Source of the DNA: Sulfolobales archaeon
Lineage (GTDB): Archaea; Thermoproteota; Thermoprotei_A; Sulfolobales; AG1
Assembly (NCBI GenBank): GCA_038867615.1
Contig: JAWBYA010000003.1
Location: forward strand, 64,001 to 128,000
DNA length: 64,000 nucleotides
Direction of reading: 5' to 3'
Both the position numbers and the translations under genes were made by a program. This document shows positions 16,904 to 45,186 of this stretch, piece by piece (position 1 is the first letter of the stretch; every line of letters starts with the position of its first letter). Under the pieces are notes generated by a model, which saw nothing but the letters and a program-made list of their open reading frames with translations, did not search any database and was not told where the DNA came from.

Positions 16904-18358
16904 ATGGATATCCTCTCACGAGCTGTAAGGAAATACTCAGAACTATTAGCGATCTCGGTATCGAGCTACAGGGATTATCTATCTCTACAGAGAGAGCTGA
17001 TAACAGCCATTATAGGTGTAATGCTCTCCCTATCACTCGCAACGATCACCAACCTCTGGTTAGGAGCCATACCGCATAACATGGAATTATCGATAGCACT
17101 CGCAATTTCGGGGTCTATTTTATCACTCCACAAGATCCTAGCCAGGGTCTCGAGATCCTTGGAGAAGGCAAAAGGATTATCAGAGGAGCTACCATATTTG
17201 GTTTTCATGGCCTCAGCAATAGCTAGGACAGGGCTCGAGCTTGTAGAAGCGCTTCATTTTATCTCAACCAGCGAGGCTGGTGTGTTTAGATATTTTAAAA
17301 GCCTCTCAAAAAGGCTTATCAATGCATCCAAATACATAGGCTTTGAGGAGGCCTTAGACAGGCTCGCAGGGATTCCTAGGGGTGTTAAGAAGACTCTGAT
17401 AACATATCTCTCAAGCATAAGTTTAGGAACAGGTATAGAGACACTGAACGCGCTTGGGTTAGAGATGATCAGAGAGGCTTCTAGACGGGCATCGAGATCT
17501 ATAGACCTAGCAGCCCAGGCTGGCCTGGTGATAACGATGGTACTCACAACAATACCGATCCTCGTCCTAGGGATCTCATCGATCCTCGGCGATCATGTAG
17601 CGCTAAGCGTAGGCATCATGGTTAGTTTAGGCACACCAGTAGCTGTTCTATTACTGCCCCAAACACCCCTACCACTCAGGCTCATAATAAGTAGGGGTAA
17701 GACGCTGTATGTTTCTTTACTAAGCCTGCTCTCCATAGGCCTTATAGTATTGGCATATGTATCAATACACCTGCTAGCCTTATCAATCATCCAGATAAAT
17801 ATAATGAAGAACATTATTATCATATTATCGATCATCATGATCCTCGTGGGTATCCCCTGGGCGGTGATCTTTGCAAACTACCTAGCCGGTTTCGGGAGGG
17901 CTAGGGATATCTTGTTTTCTATAAGCAGTTATGCCAAGGCATATAGAACACTAGATGGTCTCGACCTAGATAAGGAGGCACAGAGAGTAGGTTCATACGC
18001 ACCATGGATATTACATTATATCATATTCTCTCTGGTCTTTTTCAGAGAAAAGGGTGGGGTCGAGCCCATAGTCATCACAAGGTTTTCAGAAGAGATCATG
18101 GATGTAATGGCAAAGAACACCAACAGGATCGCGGGATCTTTGCTATCGCTTGCAGCAACCCTAGCACAGCCAGTAATGCTTGCACAGATAATCCCAATGA
18201 TGGGCTCAACCGCACATAGCCTTGGCACGATCGTCATGCTCCTATCATCAGCAACGGTATCATCGCTAATAGCATCAAAGATCTTCTTCGGAAGTGCGAG
18301 GAACACGATTATAATGGGTATGTGTTTCTTGCTACTCTATACACTTCTCCTAAGGTGA
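16904..18358 (+). CDS. TadC/FlaJ/UpsF-like pilus membrane platform protein
   Basis: Follows the assembly ATPase; about 9-10 TM segments; T2SSF-like segment EELPYLVFMASAIARTGLELVEAL...GFEEAL. Confidence 0.72.
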   Translation: MDILSRAVRKYSELLAISVSSYRDYLSLQRELITAIIGVMLSLSLATITNLWLGAIPHNMELSIALAISGSILSLHKILARVSRSLEKAKGLSEELPYLVFMASAIARTGLELVEALHFISTSEAGVFRYFKSLSKRLINASKYIGFEEALDRLAGIPRGVKKTLITYLSSISLGTGIETLNALGLEMIREASRRASRSIDLAAQAGLVITMVLTTIPILVLGISSILGDHVALSVGIMVSLGTPVAVLLLPQTPLPLRLIISRGKTLYVSLLSLLSIGLIVLAYVSIHLLALSIIQINIMKNIIIILSIIMILVGIPWAVIFANYLAGFGRARDILFSISSYAKAYRTLDGLDLDKEAQRVGSYAPWILHYIIFSLVFFREKGGVEPIVITRFSEEIMDVMAKNTNRIAGSLLSLAATLAQPVMLAQIIPMMGSTAHSLGTIVMLLSSATVSSLIASKIFFGSARNTIIMGMCFLLLYTLLLR

Positions 18359-18363
18359 TCCTC

Positions 18364-20754
18364 ATGAGCCTTTCAATAAAGATCCCATACAAGGTTGAGG
18401 ATCTATTCACGGTAGAATTGCCAGAGCATCTGCTAAGTCTGAAACCGCGTCTCATTCAATCAAGGATCAGCCCTGACACTGTCTATGTTGAAACAGAGAT
18501 CGGGGACGTGCTTGTGAGACCATTGATAGGTTTGAAAAACAATATCAACAGACCCTGGGTGTATCACGATGCCTCGAGGGTTTGTTTTAATAATGCGTGT
18601 AAAGATCTTGGCAAGATCTTTAAAGCAGCTCCACTAAGCGATAACACTGCTATAGTAATTAACGAGGGGAAAAGCTACTTAGCAGAGTTATCTGAAGACG
18701 GTATAAGAACCAGACATGTTGATGTAAAAGAGATCTTAGGATCAGTACGATACATAGATAGATCTGTTATTCTGATTCGAGAGAAAGGGTTTAGGAAGAG
18801 AGTGTTAGCAATAGACCACGGGTTTCTATATGCCGTGACAAGCTTCTGCATGGAGCGAAGAGAAGGATATGCTGTAGTAGCCTTCGAGACGGGTGGTTAT
18901 ACAAGAATATACTTTGGCGCCGAGCACGGCGGGTATATGATATACGACACAAACAGCCCGCCAGTAGCATGTACCATGGGGTATAGGGTAGCTACTATAG
19001 CGCTAAGGAACCGGGGTTCTGTATATATCGGTAAGGGACTATACCTAGAAACACCCCTAAGATCCGTAGGAACAGCGTGGATCCCTGAGGATAGGGTTCT
19101 TATTCTATACGATCAGAAGGGTGGGTGGCTATTAGAGAGCGATCTTAGAAGCCTCAAACCCATAGCCAGGCTGCCTGGCAGACCAACATATTTGGGCAGG
19201 CTTGGGGATTCAGATTCACATGTATTGACGGTTAACGGAGAGTTGGTGGTTATCAAAGGCTCCCTCATTACAAAGCCGGAGATCCGTTTAGACAGTTATA
19301 AATATGTGTCCATCAATAACAATGGGTTAGTGATAGATTCAGGAGAAACCCTCGCAATAAGATCCATAGAGGGGAGGGAGATCTGGAGTGTTAAGAAAGA
19401 TCCAGATACTCTATGCAGTGGATATGGAGACAAAATTGTATGTATTAAGGGGAACATGATCAGCGTAATAGAACCCGGTGAGGGAGAAGTGGTGATAGAG
19501 AGAAGAGCCGGTGAAATACCGGGGGTTATCATAAGCGGGGGTGGAAAAATACCAGGTATATCGGTCAGCGGGGATATAGATGTAATCAACATAACAAGAG
19601 TAGATGGAGACATAGAGATAACCATGGCGCCCAGGGTGCTTGGAAAAACATCGAGACCGTATATAGAGTTGGAGGACCTCATAACAAAGCACAGGGCTGA
19701 ATTGGAGGTCGTGGCGGAACCCCCGAAAGTAACTATAGAGCATGCTGGGATAGTGGTTTCGAGAACAGGTTTGCATATCGAGTGCGGCTCTCCCGGATAT
19801 GCCGAGGTTGTGTTAAGACTTAGCGGGAATAGATTCCACGATTTATATAGATATGTTGTGAGGATAACATCGATGGGAAGAGTTATAGGGCTAACAACAT
19901 TCCATCTAGGCTCTAACAATAGAGCTGAGGAGAAGATAGAACTGAGGATATGCCTAGAAGAGGCACCGATCGATGGAGATGCATGGCTAGAGATAACAGC
20001 TATAAAGAGAGATCTTGAGGGTCTCGAGGGCGAAGCTTTCTACAGAGCACCCTTGGTAGTTGAAACCAAGGAGCCTGTTGTCACCATATCTCTAGAGCAC
20101 TATAGCGATAAAAGCGAGATAACAGTAAAGGTAGAGAGATCCCGCGGGGTTGATGGAAACATATATGTTGATATTAAATGCACCAACACGTCATTCGAAA
20201 AAACAGAGAGAGGCAGTGGGGTTGTTAGGATCACCATAGGGGGGTGTGAGGTTCCAGCAAGAATCGTTACAGCTATCGAGGATCAAGGTTTCAAATGGAT
20301 CACTTCTAGAGAGATCCATATACCAGAACTAGTGCAATGCGCGGAGGAATATAACGATATAGCCGGTATAGCCGACGTGATGTGTACCAAGGGTGGGTTT
20401 TACAAACATATACCCCCGATCTCCCATAAAGATCTCTCACCCATAAAGGAGATAAAGGTTATAAATCTCCCAGGCAGAGGGAGCCAGGTCTTAATTATTG
20501 CTGATAGGAATGCATCATATATGGTAACAACCCTGAGAACCGGCTATGTGATTGGACAAGGCCGGCTATTCACCGGGATTAACATAGTGAACCTGGGGGT
20601 TGCAGCCCTGCTAGAGCCCTTAAGACTGTCGATCTTCAGTGGGGCGGCTTATAGAGAATATTTGATAGAGCCGGAAAACATAGCTGAGATGATCTCAACA
20701 GCCCTGAGAACATCTTATAAGCTACTAGAAATTATGGGCGGGCTAGGATTATAG
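18364..20754 (+). CDS. Large beta-rich hypothetical protein (796 aa) within the pilus operon
   Basis: ATG 18364 follows GGTGA. No signal peptide or TM segment is visible, and the sequence has a repeated short-strand pattern. Confidence 0.8.
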   Translation: MSLSIKIPYKVEDLFTVELPEHLLSLKPRLIQSRISPDTVYVETEIGDVLVRPLIGLKNNINRPWVYHDASRVCFNNACKDLGKIFKAAPLSDNTAIVINEGKSYLAELSEDGIRTRHVDVKEILGSVRYIDRSVILIREKGFRKRVLAIDHGFLYAVTSFCMERREGYAVVAFETGGYTRIYFGAEHGGYMIYDTNSPPVACTMGYRVATIALRNRGSVYIGKGLYLETPLRSVGTAWIPEDRVLILYDQKGGWLLESDLRSLKPIARLPGRPTYLGRLGDSDSHVLTVNGELVVIKGSLITKPEIRLDSYKYVSINNNGLVIDSGETLAIRSIEGREIWSVKKDPDTLCSGYGDKIVCIKGNMISVIEPGEGEVVIERRAGEIPGVIISGGGKIPGISVSGDIDVINITRVDGDIEITMAPRVLGKTSRPYIELEDLITKHRAELEVVAEPPKVTIEHAGIVVSRTGLHIECGSPGYAEVVLRLSGNRFHDLYRYVVRITSMGRVIGLTTFHLGSNNRAEEKIELRICLEEAPIDGDAWLEITAIKRDLEGLEGEAFYRAPLVVETKEPVVTISLEHYSDKSEITVKVERSRGVDGNIYVDIKCTNTSFEKTERGSGVVRITIGGCEVPARIVTAIEDQGFKWITSREIHIPELVQCAEEYNDIAGIADVMCTKGGFYKHIPPISHKDLSPIKEIKVINLPGRGSQVLIIADRNASYMVTTLRTGYVIGQGRLFTGINIVNLGVAALLEPLRLSIFSGAAYREYLIEPENIAEMISTALRTSYKLLEIMGGLGL

Positions 20755-21341
20755 ATATAAAGAGGCTTCTCAGGATACGGGAACATGTTGCCAAAATACT
20801 GTTTGGATCAGATGATCTCAGGCTAGTCGATGGAAGAATTGTTAGCTGTGATAGTAAGGGTTGCATTGCAAGAGGGTTCCTCATAGTTAGGGATTTTACA
20901 GAAACACTGGACGATCTAGAGGGTAAGGATGTACAGAGAATACTTAACTCATACGTTAAAACCCTATCTCACAACGCACCAATAGATCTGAGGATTATTA
21001 TCTCACCGATCAAGCCAGAGGAGGTGATGAGCAAAATAGACAAGGCTATACAGGTTAAACAAATCATGCTCGAAGCAGACCCAACCAACGAGAAGCTGAG
21101 AACCGAGGTTGAGAGACTGAAGAGAATTAAGAAAAAGATACTCAGCGGAGAGACCCCCTTCTCGATAAACATGGTCTTCAGCGTTATCTCACAAGGATCT
21201 ACGGAGAATGAAGCCATAGAAAGGCTCTCACATAAGATCTCGATATTAAGGGAGGAGTTGAGAAGTATAGGAATATATACCGAGGATCTTAGAGGACTTG
21301 GGGCAATAGCCGCTCTTAATAGGTTTTTTCGTGGGGAGTAA
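20751..21341 (+). CDS. Hypothetical protein resembling the N-terminal domain of VirB4-like ATPases; probable non-canonical start
   Basis: The frame is open from 20721 (after TAA 20718-20720) but has no ATG/GTG/TTG until 21024. The upstream part reads as protein (IDIKRLLRIREHVAKILFG...GFLIVRD...DLRIIISPIKPEE). The start is uncertain. Confidence 0.6.
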   Translation: MDIKRLLRIREHVAKILFGSDDLRLVDGRIVSCDSKGCIARGFLIVRDFTETLDDLEGKDVQRILNSYVKTLSHNAPIDLRIIISPIKPEEVMSKIDKAIQVKQIMLEADPTNEKLRTEVERLKRIKKKILSGETPFSINMVFSVISQGSTENEAIERLSHKISILREELRSIGIYTEDLRGLGAIAALNRFFRGE

Positions 21342-42063: not shown

Positions 42064-43725
42064 CTACTTCTCCTCTTCCTCTTTCTTCTCTTCCTTCTTA
42101 CCCTTCTCCTCGACTCCCTTGGATCTAGCAGCAGCTATAAGATCATCTATCCTCAGGATCAGGGAAGCCGCCTCTGTACCCGCCTTTATGGCATTAACTT
42201 TCACGCTTAGGGGCTCTATAACGCCGAGGCTCTTCATATCAGCTATATCTCCTCTGAACACATCGATCCCGTACCACCCGCTGGCATCCTTGTTCTTAGC
42301 CCTCAGCTTCATTATATAGTCAAGGGGATCTAGGCCAGCGTTCTCTATAAGGGTTATCACCAGCCCCTCTATAGCTGATGCGAACGCCTCTATAGCTAGT
42401 GACTCCTTACCACCAACCTTTGTTGCATAGTCCCTCAGATACATCGCGAGCTTTATCTCAGTAGCTCCACCGCCGTAGAGAACCCTGCCATCCCTTATCG
42501 CGTCTGCAACAGCGCTCATAGAATCTCTAAGGCTTCTTTCAGCCTCGTCGACAAGTCTTTCAAGACCTGCTCTTAGCAATATGCTAACGCTCCTCGGGTT
42601 CTTGGTTCCCTCAACAAAGACCATCTTATCCTCGCCGATCTTTCTCTCCTCAACAAGCTCTGCATAGCCTAGATCCTTCTCTGTTAGATCCTCTATATTG
42701 CTAACAATTCTTCCTCCTGTTGCTCTCTCGAGCTTCTCCATATCGCTCCTCTTAACCCTCCTAACAGCAAGTATACCCTTCTTAGCCAGGAAGTGCTGGG
42801 CAACATCATCAATACCCTTCTGGCAGATAACAACATTAGCACCAACAGCAGCGATCTTATCAACATAGTTCTTCAATATATTCTCCTCTTCTTCGAGGAA
42901 TTTCTTCATTTGGAGAGGATCGTTGATCCTTATCTCGGCATCTATCTCGGGCTTCTCGATCTCGAGGGGAGCGTCTAGAAGCACTATCCTAGCATTTGTA
43001 ACCCTCTTAGGCATCCCTGGATGGACAACCTCTTTATCGAGGATAACGCCATATACTAGCTTGGAGTCTGCTAAACCAGCGCCGTGCTTCTTAACCACCT
43101 GCACGTTATCGAGATCTATATACCACCTTCCATCTCTATTCTCAGCTACGGTTCTAACCGCTTTGACAGAGATATCGGCTAGATACTCCCTAGCTCCATG
43201 CACGGCCTTGCTTGTTAGGGATGTTATAGCTACTCTCCTCAGTATATTCTCATCATTTATATCGATCGGCTCTGAGATCTTGCGGAGATACTCAGCTGCA
43301 GCCTCCATAGCTCTCTTATAACCTGAAACAATTAATGTTGGATGGATCTCTTTTAACAGGAGCTCCTCAGCCTGCTTGAGAAGCTCCCCGGCAAATATAA
43401 CAGCTGTTTTTGTCCCATCACCTACCTCTTCATCCTGTCCCTTAGCTATCTGGACAAGCATCTTAGCAGCAGGGTGCTGTAGATCCATCTTATCAAGTAT
43501 TGTTGCACCGTCGTTAGTTATAGTTATATCGCCTAGAGAGTCTACAAGCATCTTATCCATACCGCGAGGACCGTAGGCCGTCCTCAGCATGTCAGCAACA
43601 GCTATTGCTGCCATCATGTTCGTTCTCAGCGCGTCTCTTCCAACTGTCCTGGTACTACCCTCTTTCAGTATTATTACTGGTATTCCAGCAGGCTCCATAT
43701 ACTGTGCAACCATTTCAAGCACCAC
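42064..43725 (-). CDS. thsB: Thermosome (group II chaperonin) subunit, beta-type
   Basis: [56 protein letters not shown]. Confidence 0.95.
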
Positions 43726-43822
43726 AAGTAGAATTGCAGGGGTTCTATATAAGCTTTTACATGTGGATTGATCTATGCCAGATATATATCTCCGAACTCA
43801 ACCACAGTTAGGAGGATATAAC

Positions 43823-44062
43823 ATGGGGAAGGTTAGGACAGGGCCTGTGAAAAGGATCTCTAGAGAGCTTTTGGAGAAATACCCAGATCTATTTACCACG
43901 GATTTTCAGAAAAATAAAGAGGCTTTGAAGAGCATCCTAAACATAGAGAGTAAGAAGCTGAGGAACCAGATCGCAGGATACATAACACACCTAATAAAAG
44001 TGAGGCAGAAAGCCGAAGCCCAAGGAGAAAGAAGTGTGGAGAGAGAAGAACTGATCGAGTAG
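43823..44062 (+). CDS. rps17e: 30S ribosomal protein S17e
   Basis: MGKVRT..VKR, FTTDFQKNK, SKKLRNQIAGYITH; SD GGAGGA. Confidence 0.96.
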   Translation: MGKVRTGPVKRISRELLEKYPDLFTTDFQKNKEALKSILNIESKKLRNQIAGYITHLIKVRQKAEAQGERSVEREELIE

Positions 44063-44076
44063 AGAGGGCGGGAGAC

Positions 44077-44364
44077 CTGAGAATAAGGCTCTTTGGATCC
44101 TTAAAAGTATATTCTGGGAAAGACGAGCTTGTAATAAAGATAGATGGAAAAGTAAAGCTAAGAGATCTTCTAGCAAACCTAGTTAAACTCGAGCCCTCTC
44201 TATCAAGGGCTATAGAGGTTGATGGGAGGGTGAAGCCTGGATACCTGGTCTTTATAAACGATGCCGATTATATGGTTTACCAAGGGTTAGATACAGAGGT
44301 GAGTGATGACGATATTATAACGTTAATGCCCATAAGCCATGGGGGATCCCCACGCCACGTATAG
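44077..44364 (+). CDS. Urm1/SAMP-type ubiquitin-like beta-grasp protein; CTG start; GG followed by an SPRHV extension (not in the ORF track)
   Basis: (M)RIRLFGSLK...RVKPGYLVFINDAD...LDTEVSDDDIITLMPISHGG-SPRHV*. SD-like GAGGGCGGGA upstream; rps17e-Ubl-cgi121 context. Confidence 0.9.
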   Translation: MRIRLFGSLKVYSGKDELVIKIDGKVKLRDLLANLVKLEPSLSRAIEVDGRVKPGYLVFINDADYMVYQGLDTEVSDDDIITLMPISHGGSPRHV

Positions 44365-44921
44365 AGGAAGAGGTAAGGATATATAGGGAGAATTTAGAGG
44401 AGCTGGAGAGGAGGTGTAGGGTCGAATATTATAGAGCATATGGGGGAAAGGAGTTAGTAGCATCTATAGAGAGGATCCTTGGTGAGGAGTGTGGTAGAGA
44501 TTCCTATTTCATAGTGTTTAGAGAGGGATTACTAATAAGCCCCCGTGTAGCTATAGCCGCTGTTGCAAGAACAGAGAGGGTGAAGAGAAGATCTAGACTG
44601 ATAGCCAGGAAACCTTCTATAGAGCTCCTTCTAAGGATCCTTGGGGAAAGGAATATATCAGAGGTTCTCAAGAAGATCGGATCCATCGATGTTGGGGAAA
44701 AAAACATAGTGGTTATAAACTGTACCGAGTGTGCTACAAACAGGCTAAAGAGCATGTTGGAAAGCATAAGCCCTGGTGAAGAGGCAATGAAAAACGGGTT
44801 GAGAGGTATAGCAAGGCTGTGCCTGGAGAAAGAGGATGTGTATAGTGATAATGGTGAAACCTTAGAGGATCTGGAGAAGCTTGTCATAAGCTGTGGGATC
44901 TCTCTGGAGTTTGAAGAATAG
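44361..44921 (+). CDS. cgi121: KEOPS complex subunit Cgi121-like protein; start uncertain
   Basis: IARKPSIELLLRILGERNISEVLKKIG matches the Cgi121 motif. The frame is open from 44310, but the first canonical start is GTG 44514. Confidence 0.72.
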   Translation: MEEEVRIYRENLEELERRCRVEYYRAYGGKELVASIERILGEECGRDSYFIVFREGLLISPRVAIAAVARTERVKRRSRLIARKPSIELLLRILGERNISEVLKKIGSIDVGEKNIVVINCTECATNRLKSMLESISPGEEAMKNGLRGIARLCLEKEDVYSDNGETLEDLEKLVISCGISLEFEE

Positions 44922-45006: not shown

Positions 45007-45186
45007 ATGAGCGTAAAGAAGAAGAAGAGGGAGGGTCCAGGACCGGCTACAGCTGCTGGTCTCGTCTCTTTCTACAAGGATGTCGAGCCAACGGTTCAGA
45101 TCAAACCCCTCCTAGTTATTCTGATCTCAGCCGCGTTCGCCATAGGGATCTTCATCCTAAGGCTCTTCATAAACCCCTTTGGATAG
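45007..45186 (+). CDS. secG: Preprotein translocase subunit Sec61beta (not in the ORF track)
   Basis: MSVKKKKREGPGPATAAGLVSFYKD...IKPLLVIL followed by a single TM helix; 59 aa. Confidence 0.92.
   Translation: MSVKKKKREGPGPATAAGLVSFYKDVEPTVQIKPLLVILISAAFAIGIFILRLFINPFG

Follow-up and report, generated by a model that had tools for sequence, protein, structure and literature searches.

The DNA analysed here, referred to as the window, is a stretch of 64,000 nucleotides (nt) from a hot-spring archaeon of the Sulfolobales. The subject is a pair of adjoining genes within it: one encoding a Urm1-type ubiquitin-like protein (Ubl) whose C-terminal Gly-Gly (GG) is masked by a short tail, and the other encoding Cgi121, a subunit of the KEOPS complex, which follows in a different reading frame. 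The genome to which the window belongs, G000, is metagenome-assembled, consists of 28 contigs and is 94% complete. On the + strand, between 43775 and 45186, the genes for ribosomal protein S17e, the beta-grasp Ubl, Cgi121 and Sec61-beta lie in a row, and a thermosome gene is divergent upstream. The features of the locus, with the pair first and its neighbours after it, are as follows:

44077..44364, + strand: Urm1-type Ubl gene; a 90-residue beta-grasp domain ending in HGG, followed by the tail SPRHV and TAG.
44341..44346, + strand: Gly-Gly codons GGG GGA, with a run of five G at 44341-44345; the putative E1 activation site once exposed, and the only conceivable -1 slip site.
44347..44364, + strand: tail codons TCC CCA CGC CAC GTA (SPRHV) and TAG, which mask the Gly-Gly and overlap the cgi121 start region.
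44361..44921, + strand: cgi121 (KEOPS subunit), in frame -1 relative to Ubl; stop at 44919-21.
44364..44378, + strand: purine-rich stretch GAGGAAGAGGTAAGG (codons EEEVR), defined in a three-genome alignment.
43823..44062, + strand: gene for ribosomal protein S17e, from ATG 43823; Pfam Ribosomal_S17e, E 5.4e-21.
42064..43725, - strand: thermosome (Cpn60/TCP-1) gene, divergent from S17e; Pfam Cpn60_TCP1, E 7e-183.
45007..45186, + strand: Sec61-beta gene, downstream of cgi121; Pfam Sec61_beta, E 4e-10.

When open reading frames (ORFs) are taken from stop to stop, the one that holds the Ubl runs from 43954 to 44364 and, read from CTG 44077, gives LRIRLFGSLK...ITLMPISHGG-SPRHV. The protein matches two Pfam profiles, Urm1 (E 1.2e-8, 35.7 bits against a cut-off of 21.8) and ThiS (E 4.8e-7, 30.7 bits against 22.5), and the ends of both profiles (96/96 and 76/76) align exactly at the GG, which closes at residue 90. 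Matches to Urm1 chains in the PDB, including 4wwm (3e-6) and eukaryotic Urm1, likewise reach the C-termini of those chains. With the NCBIfam equivalog Urm1_like the score is 48.4 bits, short of the cut-off of 70, which places the Ubl at family level and not at equivalog level.

The primary Ubl product does not end in a free Gly-Gly. The codons CAT (44338-40), GGG (44341-43) and GGA (44344-46) are followed by five tail codons (44347-44361) for SPRHV before the TAG at 44362-64, and the same is found in independent contigs. The first-pass annotation, made from the letters of the DNA alone, had described a beta-grasp ORF ending ISHGG-SPRHV with a GG that is not terminal, and both the ORFs and the Pfam alignments bear this out. 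Within the genus the tail varies (SPRHV, SPRHM, SLCYMWRKR, M, ADV and ANV), and the motif P-[IV]-[ST]-H-G-G is common to Ubls that are fused, tailed or free, with H88, G89 and G90 invariant in the Ubl alignment (A3). A genome search of G000, at its 94% completeness, returned no second Urm1-family match. The only other carrier of a beta-grasp domain is a MoaD(ThiS)-MoaE fusion (G000:C1:559968-560747, - strand; locus L102, 1036-1794), where the GG is internal (...PPASGG), and no Ubl of G000 is therefore made with a free Gly-Gly.

The Ubl gene also has an unusual beginning. The first ATG, GTG or TTG in its frame is GTG 44230, deep inside the domain, which begins 51 codons earlier. The homologous N-terminus corresponds to CTG 44077, and ATA 44083 is an alternative start candidate. 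This CTG is present in all six genomes of the genus; in four of them, all but G000 and G003, a GTG or TTG also stands three codons upstream.

Cgi121 is read in frame -1 relative to the Ubl; this frame stays open from 44310 to 44921 (203 codons), so that it spans the junction, where it reads ...WG-IPTPRIEEEVRIYRENLEE... Its first canonical start is GTG 44514, residue 52 when counted from ATA 44361. The earlier description of a -1 frame that is already open across the junction and has no canonical start until 44514 was thus accurate, as was the statement that one extra G, or a -1 slip, would yield ISHGG-IPTPRIEEEVR. Pfam CGI-121 scores 25.0 bits, exactly at its cut-off of 25, and its alignment begins at residue 55, opposite position 28 of the 159 in the profile. 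The NCBIfam Cgi121 profile scores 37.3 bits, below its cut-off of 40. A hidden Markov model (HMM) built from fused relatives matches the window Cgi121 at E 4e-21, and the Cgi121 profile A2 matches solved Cgi121 chains (1zd0, 9e-12; M. jannaschii Cgi121, 2e-8; human TPRKB, 2e-4).

By the Pfam and PDB alignments, GTG 44514 lies about 19-27 residues inside the Cgi121 fold. The 45 codons upstream of it (44379-44513) carry a CRVEYY motif common to relatives and have a ratio of nonsynonymous to synonymous substitution rates (dN/dS) of 0.13-0.17. Constrained codons ahead of GTG 44514, together with the profile alignment, make this codon too late to be the start. The near-cognate candidates are ATA 44361, which overlaps the Ubl TAG as ATAG, and ATA 44379. 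The first aligns with GTG in G002 and GTA in G003, and the second with ATG in G001, G004 and G005. The purine-rich stretch between them is identical in G000 and G002 and differs by one synonymous change in G003; it holds a Shine-Dalgarno (SD)-like GAGGT 4 nt before ATA 44379, a short spacing compared with the usual 6-9 nt at canonical starts.

Both genes are under purifying selection, with dN/dS values of 0.09-0.15 for the Ubl and 0.12-0.18 for Cgi121, including the comparison between the two start-less genomes. Genome search of G000 found no second Cgi121, and this gene, too, is single-copy. Because both frames are constrained and both genes are single-copy, both must be translated. A decayed copy with an intact Urm1 elsewhere, an outcome that the first-pass annotation had named as fatal to its idea, is contradicted by the selection and by the lack of any other Urm1 in G000.

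The junction itself is authentic. Contigs from runs X4, X7, X8 and X10 (X4 is possibly the source of the window assembly, and X8, whose contigs have the sizes of those of X7, perhaps the same data) show no inserted or deleted letters at the run of five G within 44334-44357, and the contigs of X10 represent two strains, one identical to the window and the other of the G003 type. The independent genome G003 has an identical junction, and G002 and G003 share the frame arrangement. The run is no assembly error, and the other outcome that the first-pass annotation had named as refuting, a stop directly after the GG with an ATG for cgi121, did not occur.

The arrangement in relatives was examined by an order-wide Ubl search, which matched 286 of 325 genomes; 70 genomes were hand-picked from these matches and classified by the C-terminus of the Ubl. 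Almost every locus of the order has cgi121 immediately after the Ubl. An in-frame Ubl-GG-Cgi121 ORF is present in 18 of the 70 classified genomes (genera g2, g17, g70 and g71), a short tail of 1-14 residues in 15, a fusion of the Ubl to a phosphoribosyltransferase domain in ten (family f8), and a stop directly after the GG in 27. In f14, another family of the phylum and probably Thaumarchaeota, ...IIPVIHGG-Cgi121 forms one ORF in all six fetched loci. In family f26 (loci L154, L155, L157, L159, L162 and L164) a stop falls exactly between the GG and an in-frame Cgi121, that is, a fusion with a single stop. Public proteins of the fused type carry both Pfam Urm1 and CGI-121, and one is titled ‘KEOPS complex subunit Cgi121 [Sulfolobales archaeon]’. 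Both the tails and the fusions that the first-pass annotation had suggested looking for at orthologous loci are therefore found among relatives.

Within the genus of the window the pair is always split and never one ORF. The frames differ by -1 in G000, G003 and G002, and the cgi121 of G002 has both an ATG and a GTG available. G001, G004 and G005 have a clear cgi121 ATG, tails of 1-3 residues and frame offsets of -1 or +1. The idea that Cgi121 is made as a ubiquitin-style fusion consequently holds for the relatives (the 18 genomes of the order and the six f14 loci) and is very doubtful for this genome, where the two parts are in two frames.

Several other forms of the junction were seen. In family f8 the Urm1-like domain is fused at the Gly-Gly to a phosphoribosyltransferase and not to Cgi121 in 10/10 loci of this type (L062-L069, L100 and L101), the partner having been checked by Pfam (Pribosyltran) for L062. 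In L012 a gene of the same kind sits between a GG-stop Ubl and cgi121. In L080 (G311, family f13) an ORF of 133 codons that overlaps the end of a GG-stop Urm1 gene has a weak match to the Cgi121 HMM (E 1e-4). From this resemblance, it may be the ‘small uncharacterized protein’ arCOG07188 that PMC2948915 gives as a neighbour of Sulfolobales Urm1, and as such a diverged or shortened Cgi121.

A protease that could expose the Gly-Gly is encoded in the genome, as the first-pass annotation had proposed to check. G000 has a single JAMM gene (G000:C5:21939-22388, - strand; locus L020, 1450-1899), which is not adjacent to the Ubl locus. Its product matches PF14464 (Prok-JAB) at 55 bits (cut-off 25), and the zinc motif H-x-H-x7-S-x2-D is intact, HTHPGFLATPSHKD. 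One ThiF-type E1 is also present (PF00899, E 4e-57; G000:C1:164898-165599).

Across the order, JAMM is present in 126/325 genomes with a sharp family pattern: 12/13 genomes of f1 and 58/67 of f8 have it, as against 1/47 of f13, 0/8 of f7 and 0/8 of f11. Among the 70 classified genomes it occurs in 39/43 with a masked GG and in 5/27 with a free GG, although the Fisher value of 9e-10 is overstated, as the genomes are kin and hand-picked. In addition, JAMM is present in 5/5 tested f14 genomes with the fusion. This pattern is what JAMM-dependent exposure of the Gly-Gly predicts and, judged from gene content, removal of the tail by JAMM is likely.

The JAMM gene shares features with its proposed substrate. 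It has no canonical start before its domain, overlaps the end of an ORF of 94 codons, and has a start region, GAAGAGGTAGCGATA, that resembles the start region of cgi121, GAAGAGGTAAGGATA. An ATA overlaps the upstream TAG in 4/6 genus genomes; in G000 and G003 there is a GTA, with an ATA two codons further on.

The lack of canonical starts is not confined to this system. Of the 68 ORFs in the window that reach 90 codons or more, the Ubl and cgi121 are the only two with a Pfam domain ahead of the first canonical start. Genome-wide, the first ATG, GTG or TTG lies at least 40 codons in for 107 of 2026 ORFs. When 225 ORFs whose first canonical start lies at least 25 codons in were ranked by upstream coding potential and the top 41 were tested with Pfam, a conserved domain was found to begin before the first ATG/GTG/TTG in 22; another 11 had no Pfam hit, and eight were uninformative or negative. 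The 22 genes encode an ABC ATPase, aIF2-alpha, rpS3, PaREP1, DUF350, HisG, MoeA, an HMGL-family synthase, PheRS-alpha, HflX, Rrp4, MarR, a nucleotidyl transferase, Cdc6, JAMM, TauE, an aldehyde/xanthine dehydrogenase, DHDPS, MoxR, a metallophosphoesterase, TrmO and a permease. Five of these, each without a canonical start, lie in G000 as follows:

C2:5438-6265, + strand: aIF2-alpha.
C5:113666-114724, - strand: HisG.
C7:11425-12540, - strand: ABC ATPase.
C5:45106-45852, + strand: Rrp4.
C3:7539-8252, + strand: nucleotidyl transferase.

The anti-SD sequence was inferred only from words enriched before canonical starts, as a pattern search of the genome found no 16S rRNA 3' end. With the 5-mers so defined, 11/22 of the start-less genes have CTG, ATA, ATT or ATC behind an SD 5-mer at the usual spacing. 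The gene for aIF2-alpha has a CTG with GGTGA 4 or 7 nt upstream in 6/6 genus genomes. HisG has an ATT behind GGTGG or GGTGA (AGGTG in G005), again in 6/6, and in G001 an in-frame stop lies two codons upstream. Since at least 22 other conserved genes, and the Ubl itself, are start-less, the argument from a missing canonical start to frameshifting loses its force.

Two of the 22 genes have further peculiarities. The same word, GGTGGGCTAG, precedes both rpS3 (G000:C2:227541-228248, - strand) and the HMGL-family synthase (G000:C8:9101-10591, - strand) in 6/6 genus genomes, and the HMGL gene has an in-frame GTG GTx GGC TAG directly before its conserved coding sequence.

The explanation to which we give a probability of roughly 55% is that the Ubl and cgi121 are two separate, coupled genes that are started at near-cognate codons, and that the tail of the Ubl is trimmed by JAMM. 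Here, one S17e-Ubl-Cgi121 transcript would yield the Ubl and Cgi121 as two proteins. Ribosomes that have just finished the preceding gene would start at near-cognate codons, at CTG 44077 (or ATA 44083) for the Ubl and at ATA 44361 or ATA 44379 for Cgi121. The five residues after the GG would arise incidentally, because the end of the Ubl gene overlaps the region where cgi121 starts. The single JAMM metalloprotease would then remove SPRHV, after which the ThiF-type E1 would activate the Ubl for sulfur transfer or conjugation. We infer the start codon of each gene, the translational coupling and the removal of the tail by JAMM. The earlier proposal that the Ubl needs proteolytic maturation, for example by a JAMM protease, thus gains support from the masked GG, the intact JAMM and the co-occurrence of the two, and stays conditional for the cleavage itself.

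A number of observations weigh against this explanation. The rpS3 and HMGL-family genes have no canonical or near-cognate codon of any kind at the expected N-terminus, so that some mode of initiation that is not understood operates in the genus and could apply to the Ubl and cgi121 as well. Genome-wide, SD words are not enriched before ATA or CTG in pre-start regions (ratio 1.1-1.2), and ATA codons that overlap an upstream stop, as ATAG or ATAA, are not in excess (12/24 versus about 39% expected). No exact SD 5-mer stands at the usual spacing before the near-cognate codons of the Ubl or cgi121; GAGGT is found at the 4 nt already mentioned before ATA 44379, and GAGGG 8 nt before CTG 44077. The GTA that G003 has at the position of ATA 44361 is not near-cognate. 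As for the protease, four masked-GG genomes have no JAMM (G216, G213, G048 and G190, with completeness of 64-89%), five free-GG genomes have one (G038, G232, G181, G184 and G081), and kinship and self-selection inflate the association across the 70 genomes.

ARAGORN, run with no intron search, reported 34 tRNA genes in G000, among them an ordinary initiator-type tRNA-Met(CAT) and no extra initiator-like tRNA. A literature search on near-cognate starts in Sulfolobus returned only eukaryotic papers, and according to the accessible parts of PMC8211752, elongation and termination are the only stages for which such non-canonical events have been demonstrated in Archaea.

Of the alternatives, the one that survives best is that the Ubl is not an activated modifier in these organisms. 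Its tail would stay in place and the beta-grasp domain would act non-covalently, for example as an accessory partner of Cgi121/KEOPS, much as a permanent N-terminal domain would in the fused relatives. Such an uncleaved two-domain protein fits the stability of the fusion over long times (6/6 f14 loci and 18 loci in the order), the sequence of the tail is unconstrained, and these proteins are not known to be cleaved. However, that P-[IV]-[ST]-H-G-G persists in all three forms of the Ubl would be expected only with a Gly-Gly end in use; moreover, JAMM co-occurs with the masked forms, and an E1 is present. This alternative is therefore considered unlikely.

The first-pass annotation also raised another route to Cgi121, namely frameshifting. 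As spelled out here, -1 slippage at the junction would be programmed or tolerated: with GGA (44344-46) in the P site, tRNA-Gly(UCC) would re-pair with GGG one base back, and some ribosomes would make Ubl-GG-IPTPR...Cgi121, from which a cut by JAMM after the Gly-Gly would release mature Ubl and Cgi121 in a fixed, low ratio. The -1 frame is indeed open across the junction, the re-pairing is chemically possible with a tRNA-Gly(UCC) that the genome encodes, and since 18 genomes of the order and six of f14 carry in-frame fusions joined at the same GG, the product would be functional and cleavable. Moreover, the genomes with the run of five G, G000 and G003, are the two without any canonical cgi121 start, and G002, which does not have the run, has its ATG and GTG. 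Frameshifting by -1 is also documented in the same order, for fucA1 of Saccharolobus solfataricus, where the accessible parts of PMC8211752 describe two overlapping ORFs of which the second, at -1, has no start of its own, as in the window.

The details of the site do not support slippage. According to the same parts of that paper, -1 frameshift sites consist of a heptamer X-XXY-YYZ and a structure 5-9 nt downstream, and fucA1 combines the heptamer A-AAA-AAT with rare codons and a stem-loop; the window matches none of these. Here, the zero frame CAT GGG GGA TCC gives the heptamer T-GGG-GGA, which is not of the X-XXY-YYZ type, and the 74 nt after the run (44347-44420) contain no stimulatory structure: the minimum free energy is -8.3 kcal/mol versus a shuffle mean of -11.5 (z +1.4), and 188/200 shuffles fold at least as well. 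Nor is the slip site conserved with the arrangement, as G002 has GGAGGA (GGA GGA) in place of the run with the same -1 arrangement, and G012, with GGTGGA, is also -1, start-less and endowed with the same ATAG overlap as the window. GGGGGA is found as well in G001, G004 and G008, whose cgi121 either has an ATG or already shares the Ubl frame, which argues that it is a plain choice of Gly-Gly codons. The linker between GG and EEEVR differs (IPTPR in the window, ILMLH in G002), and its codons are unconstrained, with dN/dS of 0.6-0.8.

Three further points weigh against slippage. G000 and G003 are close kin, so that the co-occurrence of the run and the missing start amounts to a single event. The Ubl gene is also start-less, and no slip can rescue it. 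Finally, the cgi121 genes of G190 and G012 are start-less without a usable slip site: in G190 the codon at the exact position of the G028 TTG is a CTG, and immediately after the GG the -1 frame runs into a TAG, which makes a slippage fusion impossible in that genome and a near-cognate start necessary. Frameshifting as the source of Cgi121 is accordingly very doubtful. If it were true, a slip at G-GGG-GA in G000 and G003 would mean that Cgi121 derives wholly or partly from a ubiquitin-style precursor cut by JAMM and that the supply of a KEOPS subunit is set by recoding plus Ubl-type processing, and it would be the second cellular -1 frameshift in archaea.

It is highly improbable that GTG 44514 is the sole start of Cgi121, which would then be truncated at its N-terminus to 135 residues, or that the pair is decaying. 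GTG 44514 is the first canonical start and the likely choice of gene callers, but the selection on the 45 upstream codons with their CRVEYY motif, the position of this GTG within the fold and the single-copy state of the gene all speak against it. An assembly or sequencing error at the homopolymer, with an in-frame fusion or a GG-stop plus ATG as the true gene, can practically be set aside, for although the genome is metagenome-assembled and G runs are error-prone on some platforms, contigs of four runs (with two co-existing strains in X10) have no indel and the frame arrangement is common to the independent genomes G003 and G002.

Two separate genes with a trimmed Ubl, the favoured explanation, have parallels among known systems. 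Masked precursors of sulfur carriers or ubiquitin-like proteins are reportedly cut by JAMM proteases in several cases: SAMP1-MoaE with HvJAMM1, CysO with Mec+ and QbsE with QbsD. The likeness lies in a ThiS/MoaD-type Gly-Gly followed by extra residues or a fused enzyme, with a JAMM/MPN+ protein in the genome, and G000 has a MoaD-MoaE fusion as well. In contrast to those cases, the partner in the window is a KEOPS subunit gene, JAMM is on contig C5 and not adjacent, and cleavage is presumed. In eukaryotic ubiquitin-ribosomal protein fusions, the ubiquitin is an N-terminal fusion that is released by cleavage after the Gly-Gly. This likeness holds for the fused relatives, whereas the window has no fusion, its carrier is of the Urm1 type and not ubiquitin, and S17e is a separate upstream gene.

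On sequence grounds, the locus is a split form of the Ubl-GG-Cgi121 fusion known since 2010, when it was reported from Thaumarchaea together with the adjoining S17e gene (Makarova and Koonin, PMC2948915, in the parts accessible). The two domains are the same, in the same order, joined or abutting at H-G-G, with S17e upstream; the differences are that in the window they lie in different frames, that the Ubl ends five residues past the GG and that neither gene has a canonical start. The accessible text of that paper held Cgi121 to be absent from Sulfolobales/Desulfurococcales, whereas the present order does have it, fused in 18/70 classified genomes. The window also resembles the Sulfolobales Urm1 neighbourhood given there (arCOG00540) in lying next to S17e and divergent from the thermosome. 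With the Urm1 of Sulfolobaceae (Saci_0669 and SiRe_1713, in the accessible parts of PMC4569737 and PMC12625751) it shares an Urm1-type beta-grasp with His-Gly-Gly. Family f13, which is probably this Sulfolobaceae Urm1 group, has GG-stop in its one classified locus (L080) and JAMM in 1/47 genomes, while in the window the GG is masked and JAMM is present. The words Cgi121, JAMM, extension and operon are absent from the accessible text of PMC4569737, and a literature search found no paper dealing with a tailed Urm1, with the processing of Urm1-Cgi121 by JAMM or with a frameshift at this locus. What is new here is the tailed state, the co-occurrence with JAMM and the start-codon context.

The conserved S17e-Ubl-Cgi121 row opens with S17e, whose TAG stop (44060-62) lies 14 nt ahead of the Ubl CTG. 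An earlier in-frame ATG is found at 43775, and the Pfam domain begins at residue 17 of the ORF from 43775. Between G000 and G003 the dN/dS of S17e is 0.03. In 80/93 loci (several genomes being counted twice) the Ubl has S17e on its own strand, no more than 400 nt upstream. A fusion of S17e to the Ubl by a second -1 shift was considered and rejected: there is no slippery site, and G002 has both genes in the same frame, parted by a TAG, with a TTG start. The fold of the S17e/Ubl junction (44040-44110) is unremarkable (z -0.7).

Elsewhere in the window, an ORF of 206 codons (20721-21338, + strand) has a coding-like composition, a first canonical start only at codon 101 and no Pfam match. Its ATA overlaps, as ATAG, the TAG of an upstream ORF of 844 codons (18220-20751, without a Pfam match), a layout like that at cgi121.

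The locus and its relatives show one junction in several states, fused, with an in-frame stop, shifted with a short tail, or cleanly separate, and the Gly-Gly is always exactly at the boundary. The link between the Ubl and Cgi121 joins two systems that modify the tRNA anticodon loop: KEOPS, with t6A, and sulfur transfer of the Urm1 type. In G000 at least 24 conserved genes, including aIF2-alpha, rpS3 and the three of this Ubl system, have no ATG, GTG or TTG start, and standard gene callers will truncate or miss them; ‘no start codon’ should not be taken as evidence of recoding in this lineage. As JAMM is present almost only where the Gly-Gly is masked, JAMM-dependent maturation of archaeal Urm1 is predicted, and the five-residue tail described here and the full fusions in relatives are its natural candidate substrates.

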